24,665 bases of DNA, taken from UHGV virus genome UHGV-1848590. One strand, 5' to 3'. The notes beneath the pieces were generated by a model. It was not told the origin of the DNA. It saw only the letters and a program-made list of their open reading frames with translations, and ran no database searches. This document shows positions 13,795 through 24,665 of the stretch, one piece after another (the first letter of the stretch is position 1; each line of letters begins with the position of its first letter). The translations under genes were made by a program, and so were the position numbers. Source of the stretch: a virus.

Positions 13795-14692
13795 GCACTG
13801 GAAAAACATTACTATTTATAAACTTTCTCGTGAGGCGGATCTGACCGACTTAGAAGATAAAAAGAAAATGATCCTTTTCACGCCATGCGGTAGTCAGGAT
13901 ATGGCCAAGTTCGGTTTTGTATCGCCATTTGGTGATAATTCTGAAGTTATCGCTATGCATGGAAATGGTTTTATCCTTGTTGAAGCAAAGCGCGAAACAA
14001 AAATTCTTCCCCCGCCGGTTATCCAGCGAGCTATTCAAGAAAAAATTGAAAAACTTGAGCAAGAACAAGCGCGTAAACTGAAGAAAACAGAGAAGGACTC
14101 CCTGAAAGACGAAGTTCTGCATTCTCTTCTGCCACGGGCTTTTTCAAAGTTTTCTGTTATCCAGGCGATCTACGACGGTTCAACTAAACGTATCTATATC
14201 AATGCCAGCGCGCGGCAGGCAGAGGATATGCTCGCGCTTATGCGTAAGTCTCTGGGTTCTCTTCCTGCTGTTCCCCTGAGTGTTGAAAATCCCATTGAAT
14301 TAACGCTGACCGACTGGGTACGTGATGGTAGTGCTCCACAGGGATTTCAAATGGGGGATGCGGCAGAACTTAAGGCAGTGCTTGAGGATGGCGGTATTGC
14401 CCGAGTGAAAAAGCAGGATTTGGGAAGCGATGAAATTTCCACACACCTGGAAGCTGGCAAGCTCGTCACTAAGTTGGCACTCGACTGGCAGAACCGCATT
14501 AAATTTACACTGGACCATAACTTCAGCCTTACCAGCGTCAAATTTGCGGATGAATTGCTTGAGCAGAACTCTGATATTGATAGTGAAGATGTTGCGCAGC
14601 GACTGGACGCAGATTTCTTCCTGTTGACCAGTGAAATTTCGTGCCTGGTTGATGCTCTGGTAAATGCCCTTGGCGGAGAGGCTAAGCAGTGA
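13787..14692 (+). CDS. hrdC: RdgC-family recombination-associated protein homolog (302 aa)
   Basis: Strong end-to-end similarity to E. coli RdgC as I recall it ([69 protein letters not shown]-terminal LGGEA); ATG 13787 with AAGGG RBS. Confidence 0.9.
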
Positions 14693-17600
14693 AAGAGCTG
14701 TGCTATGGATCTGTTTGCAGTGGAATTGAAGCCGCGAGTATTGCCTGGGAACCGTTGGGTATGCGTCCGGCGTGGTTTGCTGAAATCGAGCCTTTTCCAT
14801 CGGCCGTTCTTGCGCTCCGCTGGCCCCATGTTGCCAACCTTGGCGACATGAAAAAACTTGCCAAAAAAGTCTTGGCTGGGGAAATCGAATCCCCTGACGT
14901 GCTCGTCGGGGGAACACCATGTTTTACCGCGGGGCATATGGTTCTTTGTAAAAATGGCTATAAACCAATAGAAAATGTTTGCCCTGGTGATTACGTAGTC
15001 AGTCATCTCGGGCGGTTACAACAAGTAAAAAGAGTTGGTTCAAAAATAGCTAATACGGGGTTACTTAATGCCGTTGGGCAGCCTTTAGGTATAAGAACAA
15101 CCAATGACCATCCCTTCCTGGCTGTTCGGTGGAAAGCCCAAAACACCCGGAAAAATGGCACATATTTTAAGAGAGAGTTGTTGTCTGAACCGGAATGGCG
15201 AGCAGCATGTGATATGCCGGGATATCAATGGTGCGCTCTAACTAATTTCAATATTGCATTTCCAGATATTTGTTCTCGGTTCTTGTCTGAAGAACAGGCT
15301 ATGTATCTTGCGGGCGCTTATGTTGGCGATGGATATATTAGGAGATGGAGAGGTAAATCTAAGAAGGCGGTTGTTTTTGGCATAAATTGCCAGAAATTGA
15401 GAAAGTTTCATTGCCGCATACCAGAAAACATATTTTCCGTGGCAAGCGAAATCCGAGGGAGCATCAAAGTAACCTTGAATGATACGTGTTATGCCAATTG
15501 GCTTAATGAACATTTTGGCGAGTTAAGCCATGCTAAGCGTATCCCTGCATGGGTGATGTCGCATCCATTGCGTCATGTGTTTTTACAAGGCTATCTTGAT
15601 ACTGATGGGACACCAAGTGGTAAAGCGGGATTTAGAATTAATAGTGTTAGTTCTGCGCTTGCTTGGGGCGTTGCGGGGTTGTCACAGACTTGTGGTTATG
15701 TTTCTTCGGTCAGCTTTATTGAAGTTGAGCCCAAAAAAGTGATCGAGGATCGCGTGGTAAATCAACGGAATTATTATCAGGTAACAATCTGCCCGCAGAA
15801 ATTGTCACGTAAATCAAGATTGGCTCATGGAATGCTTTTACGAACAGTCAAAGAGTTTAAATCGGTAGGCCTAGATACTGTATACAACATAGAAGTCGAA
15901 GGTGATCATTCCTATATCCTCAATGGTGCGGTGGTCCATAACTGTCAGGCATTCAGTATCGCGGGATTACGTGGTGGGCTTGATGATGAGCGTGGCGCGC
16001 TAACTTTAAAGTATGTGGAGCTTGCAAATGCAATTGACGACAAACGGGCTGAGTCATTTCTCAAACCAGCCGTTATCGTCTGGGAAAATGTCCCAGGAGT
16101 CTTGTCATCGGCAGATAACGCCTTCGGATGTTTCCTTGCCGGATTGGCTGGAGAAGATGTGCCATTTGAACCAGGTGATCGACCTGAATCAGGAAAAAGC
16201 AACGCGTTCTGGCGGTGGGATGGCAAAACCGGTTGCCATGTTCCAAAGTGGCCGCAGTGTGGTTGTATTTATGGACCGCAGCGAAAAGTGGCCTGGAGAA
16301 TCCTTGATGCCCAATACTTCGGAGTGGCACAACGACGCCGACGCGTGTTTGTTGTCGCAAGTGCTCGAACAGATCTCGATCCCGCAACGGTACTTTTTGA
16401 GTTCGAAGGCGTGCGCCGGAATATTGCGCCGAGCAGAGGCGAGGGGAAGGAAACTACCAGATATACTTCAAACATCGCTATCAGAACTTGCGATGATACA
16501 AACATAATTGCCATGGCACATGGGCAAGGAGGGGCTGAGATAAAAACCGATAATTCGGCACCAACTTTGACATGTAACCATGAAGCACCAATTGTATTGC
16601 TCGGCGACGGTAGAATGCGCCGTCTTACCCCTGTCGAATGTGAAAGGCTGCAAGGTTTTCCTGATTGGCATACGTTGATCCCTACGGAAAAGCGTAAAAA
16701 AGTTAATTCAGATGAACTGGCATATCTGCACAATCACTATCCAGATTTAAGCGAAGAAGAGGCCGCAATGCTTGCAGCTGACGGACCGCGTTACAAAGCG
16801 ATCGGCAATAGTATGGCAATACCAGTAATGCGCTGGATTGGCGATCGGATTACTAAGGCCGTATGTCGGCAGAAAGAAGGAAGTGAAACAAAAGAGCGAA
16901 AAGTTAAACCAGCGGCAGAATTCGAACGGTCCATATTCAAATGGGCTGGTGGAAAATTTGGTGTTCTGGAACAAATCTTTCGCTATTTGCCAGAAGGGAA
17001 GCGCCTGATTGAACCTTTCGTTGGTGGCGGAGCTGTCTTCATGAATGCCGGATACCAGGAAAATCTGCTAAATGATGTGAATGCTGACCTGATTAACTTT
17101 TACAAGACTCTGCAACGCGAGGCGCATTCACTTATCACTCTGGCACATCGTTTCTTCCAGGACTACAACACACAGGAAGGATACCTGGCAGTACGGAATG
17201 CGTTTAACAAACAAGTCTATGATGATTTACATCGCGCAGCGGCGTTTTTGTTCCTGAACCGACATTGTTTTAACGGATTGACGCGTTACAACCAGGCCGG
17301 TGAGTTCAATGTCGGTTATGGGAAGTATAAAACTCCGTATTTCCCATTACAGGAGATGGAAGCCTTCCTCGGTGCGGAAGGGCGGTCTGAGTTTGTATGC
17401 GGTGATTTTGCAGCGGTGATTGAAGCTGCCGGAGAAGGAGATGTCATCTTTTGCGATCCGCCGTATGAACCGCTTCCAAATACAGAGGGATTCACGAACT
17501 ATTCCGGTCATGACTTTAAGTTTGAAGAGCAAAAACGCCTGGTGTCTCTGTTGACGGATGCTCATCGTCGAGGTGCAAAGGTTCTCATTACTAACAGTGG

Positions 17601-17730
17601 CGCGCCAAACATCAGAGAGCTTTATCATGACAGTGGCTTCAGAGTGGAACCTCTTTTTGCCAGACGTTCTGTGTCTTGTAAGGGGGACACTCGAGGTGTA
17701 GCTCATGACGTTTTGGGTATATTGCTCTAA
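14689..17730 (+). CDS. dmt: bifunctional DNA methyltransferase Dmt (N-terminal C5-cytosine MTase, C-terminal Dam-like N6-adenine MTase) interrupted by an intein; 1013 aa precursor
   Basis: C5-MTase motifs I (CSGIEAAS), IV ([12 protein letters not shown], split), VI (VWENVPG), VIII (QRRRRVFVV), X (GNSMAIPV); Dam domain from ~residue 745 (FKWAGGKF...FCDPPYEP); GTG start overlaps the rdgC stop. Confidence 0.9.
14920..15942 (+). mobile_element. intein with LAGLIDADG homing endonuclease (341 aa, residues 78-418 of Dmt)
   Basis: Block [21 protein letters not shown], block [17 protein letters not shown] motifs [11 protein letters not shown] and [11 protein letters not shown], blocks [23 protein letters not shown] followed by +1 Cys; flanks rejoin as [12 protein letters not shown]. 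Confidence 0.85.
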
Positions 17731-18482: not shown

Positions 18483-18569
18483 GGGGAGTTAGTCCGTAGG
18501 GGTAGCGGGGTAGACTGTAAATCTACTGTCATTGCGACTCGGGTGGTTCGACTCCATCACTCCCCACCA
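18483..18569 (+). tRNA. tRNA-like element, Tyr(GTA)-like class II, noncanonical acceptor/D-arm junction (possible pseudo-tRNA)
   Basis: Acceptor ggggagt/actcccc + A + CCA, anticodon arm gtaga-ctGTAaa-tctac, long variable arm, TTCGACT T-loop; acceptor-to-D-stem linker is irregular. Confidence 0.4.
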
Positions 18570-23914: not shown

Positions 23915-24665
23915 GAACGTCATTAGTCACCCGTGAAGAGATGATCGAGGCAATTGAACAGCACACAATCTGTATCAGCACCAGGGATATACCAGGCGTT
24001 ATTGCCAACTACTTCATGATCACCAAACAACTTTACCGGAGAAAGGACAAGAACGCGGTTCACCGTATCCTGTTGTCTGATATCCGCGAATACCTGCTCG
24101 AACAGGGTCATCTGAATTACGCAACCGTCGCAGCCGAAGCACGCAAGGAGGCACACAGAATGAAAGCAACTAACGTTAAATCAGAAAAAATTCATGCAAC
24201 TTCAGTTCAGGAATCGGAGCTGGTGGTTGTTCAGAATCAGTCTGATGAAATTCCCGTTCTGGAATGGCTGGGAGTGCGTGTAGTGACAACTGAGACTCTT
24301 GCTAAAGGGTATGGGACCGATGAAGCGAATATTCGTAAAAATTTGTCTCGCAACCCCGATCGCTTTGAAGAAGGTAAGCATTACTATCTCTTAACTGGTT
24401 CAAAATTAAAGGAATTTAAAAGGCTAGTGACTATTAGTCACTTGGTTAGCAAATATACAAGTCAGGTAATTCTCTGGGCCGAGCGCGGAGCGGCACGCAT
24501 GTCTAAGATCGTGGACACAAATGAAGCGTGGGCATTCTTTGAAAAACTGGAAGACAGCTACTTCCGGCAAAAAGAACAGCAACCGGTCGCAATCCCTCAG
24601 ACGCTTCCCGAAGCTCTGCGCCTGGCTGCCGAGCTGGCTGAACAAAAGCAACTTCTGGAACAGAA
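23911..24665 (+). CDS. antirepressor-like protein, partial (runs off window end); in-frame internal start at 24160
   Basis: AGGAGG before ATG 23911; open frame to the window end (not in the ORF track, having no stop); second strong AAGGAGG RBS before in-frame ATG 24160; region from ~residue 110 (VLEWLGVRVVTTETLAKGYGTDEANIRKNLSRNPDRFEEGKHYYLL) resembles ORF6N/Rha-type antirepressor N-domains. Confidence 0.45.
   Translation, partial: MRTSLVTREEMIEAIEQHTICISTRDIPGVIANYFMITKQLYRRKDKNAVHRILLSDIREYLLEQGHLNYATVAAEARKEAHRMKATNVKSEKIHATSVQESELVVVQNQSDEIPVLEWLGVRVVTTETLAKGYGTDEANIRKNLSRNPDRFEEGKHYYLLTGSKLKEFKRLVTISHLVSKYTSQVILWAERGAARMSKIVDTNEAWAFFEKLEDSYFRQKEQQPVAIPQTLPEALRLAAELAEQKQLLEQ

Follow-up and report, generated by a model that had tools for sequence, protein, structure and literature searches.

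The question raised by the dmt gene of the P1-like phage-plasmid segment analysed here (UHGV virus genome UHGV-1848590; the whole stretch of 24,665 nucleotides is referred to as the window) is what to make of 341 in-frame residues that separate the two halves of a cytosine methyltransferase active-site motif. The gene is the final one of the uhr-hrdC-dmt operon and is read on the plus strand, as are all features whose coordinates are given below, from a GTG start as a precursor of 1013 amino acids and a stop codon (14689-17730), in which a C5-cytosine methyltransferase (C5-MTase) domain split by the insert is followed by a Dam-type N6-adenine methyltransferase (MTase) domain. A first-pass annotation, made from the sequence alone, had proposed that the insert (Dmt residues 78-418; 14920-15942) is an intein, and both the frame and these coordinates are confirmed by the open reading frame call and by alignment with the P7 and P1 homologues. 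With a probability of about 0.85, the insert is a class-1 intein in which a two-motif LAGLIDADG homing endonuclease is nested within a Hint splicing domain, and it is predicted both to splice and to home.

Alignment with P7 Dam (672 aa) and the reference P1 Dmt (754 aa) places a single clean gap of 341 columns between GGTP77 and C419QAFS, and the exteins flanking the insert are approximately 91-97% identical to these proteins. The intein is absent from the reference genomes of P1 (NC_005856) and P7 (AF503408), which have the same uhr-hrdC-dmt operon and the same layout of C5 and Dam domains, and which differ in lacking the 1023-nt insert and in the codon for Pro77, which is CCT as opposed to CCA in the intein-plus alleles. 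The frame is also contiguous across the junction in 361 of the 497 dmt-bearing plasmids in PLSDB and in 85 intein-free loci. When residues 1-77 are joined to residue 419 onward, the product aligns without a gap to motif IV of M.HhaI (GFPCQAFS) across Cys81; excision would thus rejoin GGTP to CQAFS and restore motif IV, as had been proposed, and by the same alignment the +1 cysteine that is retained after excision is the predicted catalytic nucleophile of the C5-MTase. The intein has a GC content of 42.7%, against 54.5% and 48.4% in the exteins.

The intein hallmarks named in the first-pass annotation are all present, and their conservation was counted in a MAFFT alignment of 146 relatives from outside P1, down to approximately 27% identity. 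Block A opens the insert with CFTAGH (14920-14958), and its Cys1, which is Cys78 of Dmt and the predicted nucleophile of the N-S acyl shift, is found in 146/146 relatives. Block B (15088-15120) contains T61-N-D-H64, the threonine being kept in 143 and the histidine in all 146. The two LAGLIDADG motifs both close with D-G (D137-G and D229-G) and supply the predicted catalytic acids of the endonuclease: Asp137 in the first (intein residues 128-139; 15301-15336; helix 124-137 in the model), an aspartate in 137 of the 146 relatives, and Asp229 in the second (FLQGYLDTD229G, residues 220-231; 15577-15612; model helix 218-229), an aspartate in 143. Blocks F (residues 321-334) and G (NGAVVHN, residues 335-341) together occupy 15880-15942 and end in His340 (130/146) and Asn341 (146/146), after which the +1 cysteine is present in 142 of the 146 relatives. 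The splicing residues are therefore nearly invariant, and the retention of C1, H64, N341 and C+1 in homologous inserts is unlike what would be seen in an ordinary domain that does not splice. The alternative of a group-I intron that encodes a free-standing endonuclease is ruled out, because the reading frame is unbroken and the Hint blocks abut both junctions.

Profile matches to the insert point the same way, at a strength well beyond chance. The Pfam profile LAGLIDADG_3 passes its cut-off (E=3e-8; 34.2 bits, cut-off 22.5), as does the NCBIfam profile TIGR01443 (intein_Cterm; 28.9 bits, cut-off 15.6), Intein_splicing matches at E=2e-4, and Hint_2 falls just under its cut-off with an alignment that starts at intein residue 1. 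Matches from a sequence search of the PDB were weak (E 0.0015-0.18), the C-terminus of the Spl DnaX mini-intein being found at E=0.0015 and the endonuclease domain of PI-PkoII at E=0.024, and a comparison of folds was therefore required for a clear result. An AlphaFold2 model of the intein, built on 13 homologues (pLDDT 90.5, pTM 0.88), gave PI-SceI as its top Foldseek match (E=2.4e-17), with further matches to TliVMA, PhoVMA, PI-PfuI, PI-PkoII and the Prp8 intein, whilst I-DmoI and I-SceI match the endonuclease part (E 3e-5 to 1e-4). In the predicted structure, the two terminal parts of the insert together make up a Hint beta-strand fold, and the order of helices and strands is that of the alpha-beta-beta-alpha-beta-beta-alpha endonuclease core.

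The possession of an intein fold does not by itself decide between an insert that splices and one that does not. If the insert were a non-splicing Hint/LAGLIDADG domain or a dead intein, the C5 domain would be permanently disrupted, Dmt would be a Dam-only enzyme and the frame would be kept open solely for Dam expression. Dam methylation is indeed the function known to matter for P1, which requires it for pac cleavage (PMC12707154), the C5 activity carries a 'perhaps' in the annotations, and Dam needs an open frame through the insert in any case. The host domain, nevertheless, keeps its C5 motifs. Pfam matches it to PF00145 (E=7e-30) in four separate stretches, the separation being due to the 341-aa insert, and the C-terminal Dam domain to PF02086 (E=2e-56). 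The N-extein (aa 1-77; 14689-14919) runs from motif I (14704-14739) through GGTP, the first half of motif IV, and the C-extein starts with CQAFSIAG (15943-15966), in which Cys419 is the predicted +1 splice nucleophile as well as the motif IV cysteine. The remainder of the C5-MTase domain, delimited by profile, alignment and motif positions (15943-16870), contains motif VI (ENV, 16078-16101), motif VIII (QRRRR, an instance of QxRxR; 16330-16356), motif IX (16618-16662), which is preceded by a short target-recognition region of the P7 type, and motif X (GNS, 16798-16827). Once the insert is removed, motifs I, VI, VIII, IX and X and the Pro-Cys of motif IV are colinear, and in alignment with P7 and P1 the C5 motifs 3' of the intein are the same as in the intein-free alleles. 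The Dam-type domain follows at 16936-17727 (aa ~746-1009; PF02086, TIGR00571), with its DPPY motif at 17449-17466.

The more distant relatives of the insert bear on the same choice. HMMER, run exhaustively against the representatives of 1.84 billion clusters at 50% identity, identified 186 of them at E<=1e-30, and among the 151 full-length matches that were retrieved, all 151 start with Cys, 134 end with HN, approximately 138 are preceded by xP and 131 are followed by CQ. In a word-indexed search, the relatives of about 50% identity lie, every one, within PF00145 proteins at the same insertion site, and distant relatives of 29-32% identity lie in unrelated C5-MTases; when one genome per species was scanned, this arrangement also turned up in Metarhizobium, Mesorhizobium, Chloroflexota, Clostridia and Neisseria. 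In host genes without a Dam domain that bear a related insert, motif IV and the C5 motifs downstream of it are retained, and a mini-intein without an endonuclease domain occupies the same site (P0019). The exteins of diverged intein-bearing genes retain motif IV (CQAFS/CQDLS...AG), which indicates that the host enzyme is still selected with the insert in place and so favours genuine splicing over a dead insertion. Taken with the near-invariance of the splicing residues down to approximately 27% identity, these observations make a non-splicing insert highly improbable.

Two groups of relatives depart from this arrangement. Three loci (L121, L123 and L125, in Chloroflexota, Accumulibacter and Polyangiaceae metagenome-assembled genomes) carry inteins that are 28-29% identical to that of Dmt at a variant motif IV, SPD/C...HN/C(T/K)HFSKAKGG, with the junctions marked by slashes, in hosts of more than 700 aa that have C5-MTase-like motifs (FAGGGG, ENV, RKRLF, GNSV). 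In Mannheimia haemolytica, a 439-aa protein found on 578 contigs (P0010) contains a 47%-identical intein at the same site with its splicing and LAGLIDADG motifs intact, and the host frame stops approximately 20 residues past the +1 Cys-Gln; this may represent an intein persisting in a decayed methylase gene.

If the Dmt intein follows the established class-1 pathway, the steps of which are assigned here from residue conservation alone, the 1013-aa precursor would be translated first, Cys78 (intein Cys1) would perform the N-S acyl shift and the thioester would be handed to Cys419 (+1). Cyclisation of Asn418 would then free the intein, and an S-N shift would yield a 672-aa Dmt with an intact GGTPCQAFS and the architecture of P7 Dam/Dmt. 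Before splicing, the active-site loop of the cytosine methylase would stay split and, because the insert divides the Pro-Cys catalytic loop, 5-methylcytosine (5mC) activity should depend on splicing. The C-terminal Dam domain is predicted not to have this dependence and, as a unit that folds separately, may already be active before splicing. Once released, the intein would be expected to cleave dmt alleles that lack it within the sequence coding for motif IV, between ...GGTACGCCT and TGTCAGGCATTCAG..., when two P1-like genomes co-occupy a cell, and repair of the double-strand break would then copy the intein together with approximately 100-200 nt of flanking extein. What the sequences document directly is the exact insertion with its motifs, predicted fold, conservation across the family, distribution in populations and linked flank; that the intein splices, cuts DNA and homes, and that 5mC depends on its splicing, is inferred.

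The first-pass annotation, which named no intein in P1 Dmt, needs correcting on the distribution: the reference P1 and P7 genomes lack the intein, and in P1-like elements it is common. Amongst 18 dmt-bearing phage records it is present in five, which consist of two GenBank/RefSeq duplicate pairs (Ro157c2YLVW and RCS47) and OP279344. In PLSDB it occurs, at 95% identity or more, in 129 plasmid records, which is approximately 26% of the P1-like plasmids, and 152 of 5,426 complete E. coli genomes have it, in 153 copies of which 148 are plasmid-borne. The intein-plus P1-like elements span Escherichia, Salmonella and Shigella hosts and diverse backbones. The OP279344 genome is that of a P1vir laboratory stock (bioRxiv 10.1101/2022.09.09.507302) that was used in Argonaute studies; its dmt (L001; 3001-6042) encodes the intein-bearing protein of 1013 aa, labelled only as Dmt, and is 99% identical to that of the window, and the P1 lineages in common laboratory use are therefore not alike in intein status.

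The movement of the intein among dmt alleles was followed with pattern scans of IMG/VR, which gave 83 loci with an empty site and 25 with the 5' junction of the intein and, once the window and the phage records were added, a set of 85 sequences without the intein and 28 with it. The 24 complete copies of the intein from IMG/VR and the phage records are all intact and fall into 13 distinct sequences, none differing from the window copy at more than 11 of 1023 nt (1.1%). The codon for Pro77 is CCA in every intein-plus allele and CCT in every P1-like intein-free allele, and this private marker at position -1 suggests one origin within P1-like elements; intein-free alleles with the intein-type flank (...ACACCA/TGTCAG), which would be a sign of precise loss, were not present in IMG/VR. 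Upstream of the insertion, the association of single-nucleotide polymorphisms with the intein falls from an r2 of 1.0 at -1 to 0.91 at -22 and 0.67 at -48, -104 and -118, and is approximately zero beyond -129. Downstream, the intein-linked alleles are found in 100% of intein-plus copies to +66, in 93% to +160 and in 33% at +218, beyond which the association is approximately zero, and nucleotide diversity over the first 200 nt is 0.6% in intein-plus and 3.0% in intein-minus sequences. The two groups cease to differ beyond +200 and -130. The linked block (approximately -118 to +200 nt; 14802-16142) thus resembles a co-conversion tract in its polymorphism association and its diversity, and the intein is found on both variants of the downstream target-recognition region (12 short and 11 long, compared with 27 short and 38 long amongst the intein-free alleles). 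The diversity of the intein itself is 0.56%, far under the 3% of the equivalent flank in intein-free alleles. This pattern is the one expected for an element that entered once with a donor flank and then moved among dmt backgrounds with short co-conversion tracts, and endonuclease-driven homing is likely; ordinary recombination around a single insertion could produce the pattern too.

Two intein-plus loci had very different N-exteins and were set aside, one (L098) as an apparent assembly artefact with a poly-C run and the other (L090) for an IS-like sequence 35 nt upstream. In the latter (IMGVR_UViG_2537562191_000039), a sequence resembling a transposase end replaces the N-extein from 35 nt upstream, and the host gene is truncated and the intein is 100% identical to that of the window.

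Several points weigh against the reading of the insert as an active splicing and homing element. Position 4 of block F is Asn, where Asp is more usual; the Hint_2 match (E=3e-6, 28.1 bits) lies 0.3 bit under the Pfam gathering score of 28.4; and the P1 and P7 annotations give the cytosine methylation by Dmt only as 'perhaps at C5 cytosine'. Within the P1 intein, synonymous and non-synonymous polymorphic codons number 13 each, too few for an informative dN/dS, and purifying selection among these very recent copies is therefore weakly resolved. Finally, homing is not proven, because the same decaying linkage would result if one ancient insertion had been followed by ordinary homologous recombination. 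It is possible, then, that the intein splices with an endonuclease that has lost its activity or effectiveness, the distribution being the outcome of one insertion, homologous recombination between co-resident P1-like plasmids and clonal spread of plasmids; linkage that decays with distance is expected from any recombination around an insertion of single origin, and both the shared CCA marker and the equal numbers of synonymous and non-synonymous codons are in keeping with this. However, such an account is unlikely for several reasons: first, the LAGLIDADG acids and their surrounding motifs are intact here, the acids being conserved in 137 and 143 of the 146 relatives, and the frame is open in all 24 complete copies. 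Second, the intein has reached a frequency of approximately 26% over diverse backbones, both types of target-recognition region and hosts in three genera. Third, its low diversity relative to the intein-free flank fits a recent sweep.

The placement of the insert at a catalytic residue also raises the possibility that the intein now serves as a conditional switch, responding to redox state, metal ions, temperature or the stage of infection, and timing the cytosine methylation apart from the adenine methylation of one polypeptide. Cys1, Cys+1 and the nearby Cys10 and Cys21 could form disulfides that block splicing, as is established for other inteins; placement at the catalytic residue would make the dependence on splicing all-or-none; and zinc and redox control are documented for other inteins in works cited by PMC8616854. 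This co-option is nonetheless improbable, given that approximately 74% of P1-like plasmids are without the intein, that its distribution resembles that of a selfish element and not of a fixed regulatory module, and that no sequence data bear on regulation. The bolder form of the proposal, in which conditional splicing acts as a post-translational switch in P1-like phages such that adenine methylation for pac cleavage is immediate and cytosine methylation is delayed or gated, is decidedly improbable; were it true, the gain might be less toxicity in the lysogen or a timed protection against restriction.

Further observations concern the host enzyme and the surrounding window. Among P1-like phages, the C5 target-recognition region (approximately 16435-16610; Dmt aa ~583-640) takes two or more unrelated forms, the short P7 type, which is that of the window, and a long P1 type with 82 extra residues. 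These variants assort independently of the intein, and they suggest that the P1-like Dmt family has at least two cytosine-methylation specificities. In the reference P1 c1-100 (NC_005856, L004), codon 74 of dmt reads Trp in place of Gly (VWGTPCQ, as opposed to VGGTPCQ), three residues before the catalytic cysteine; the change is found in 1 of 85 intein-free alleles, and the C5 domain of the P1 laboratory reference may be impaired by it. Positions 16700-16718 of the window correspond to the late promoter LPdam2 predicted inside P7 dam, with a -22 box of AAGTTAATT in the window and AAGTTTCTT in P7; a Dam-only product from this internal promoter was set aside, as the promoter is only predicted and the -22 box differs in the window. 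Downstream of dmt, a tRNA-Tyr(gta) gene (18483-18569) lies between tRNA-Asn and tRNA-Thr and is also present in Ro157c2YLVW, whilst the reference P1 and P7 annotations give only Asn and Thr there. Escherichia phage vB_EcoM-Ro157c2YLVW matches 92% of the length of the window at 99.1% identity, and the identity to RCS47 is 98%. The matches to these closest phage records span only 938-24025, and the two ends without a match in them (1-937 and 24026-24665) are therefore probably variable accessory regions.

In practical terms, the intein affects how a well-used gene is read. P1 is among the most heavily used phages in bacterial genetics, yet in about a quarter of P1-like phage-plasmids, and in one or more laboratory P1vir stocks, the intein is unannotated: the products of intein-plus dmt genes are named only 'Dmt', 'DNA methyltransferase' or 'Dam family ... 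methyltransferase', the PGAP name for the 1013-aa product being simply 'Dam family methyltransferase', where the annotation should give a mature Dmt of 672 aa plus a free endonuclease of approximately 39 kDa. The intein-plus P1vir and the intein-minus P1 c1-100 form a natural E. coli pair for the study of homing, co-conversion and splicing-dependent activation of an enzyme in a phage-plasmid. More broadly, C5-cytosine methyltransferases with an insertion at the catalytic cysteine join the hosts of inteins, in a family that is large (more than 130 clusters at 50% identity), although the understanding of inteins in general is unchanged.

Full-text searches of the openly available literature, the old InBase list not included, turned up no description of an intein in the dmt gene of P1 or in any C5-MTase and no paper on the family of inteins at motif IV, and Novikova et al. 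(2016) name no methylase in their main text; three apparent matches (a CASP14 paper, a B. thuringiensis phage paper and a plasmid review) proved to be unrelated. For the motif IV family, automatic annotation provides domain-level names only, a few relatives being called 'Hint domain-containing' or 'DOD-type homing endonuclease'. The members of this family, for example in Mannheimia haemolytica, Metarhizobium album, Chloroflexota, Clostridia and Neisseria, share with the Dmt intein the xP/C...HN/CQ site, 27-56% identity over the entire intein and the same conserved residues; they differ in lying in other host MTases, mostly without a fused Dam domain, and some are mini-inteins or sit in what may be decayed genes.

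Inteins in DNA methyltransferases are not themselves without precedent, which corrects the first-pass annotation: they are known in the N6_N4_Mtase proteins DNMT-1/2 of mycobacteriophages (PMC5050341) and in an actinophage methylase family (PMC9957025, PMC11855218). The actinobacteriophage examples resemble the Dmt intein as selfish inteins in an orphan phage DNA methyltransferase with a patchy distribution among related phages. Their hosts, however, are N6/N4 amino-methyltransferases, whereas Dmt is the C5-MTase (PF00145) of an enterobacterial phage-plasmid and carries its insert at the catalytic cysteine of motif IV. Insertion at catalytic residues of DNA-metabolism enzymes is the norm for inteins (PMC4760082). 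In structure, the closest known systems are PI-SceI of S. cerevisiae VMA1, the archaeal VMA inteins, PI-PfuI and PI-PkoII, which share with the Dmt intein a Hint domain interrupted by a two-motif LAGLIDADG endonuclease, together with Cys1, the TxxH of block B, the terminal HN and Cys+1, and which provide its best structural matches (E 2e-17 to 2e-9). The sequence identity to these is only 11-17%, the Dmt intein has 341 aa as opposed to 454-537 aa and is without an obvious extra DNA-recognition region, and its host is a DNA cytosine-5 methyltransferase of a phage-plasmid and not an ATPase, polymerase or ribonucleotide reductase. In summary, the Dmt intein appears to be a previously undescribed addition, in host protein and in insertion site, to a familiar class of inteins, and not a new kind of system.

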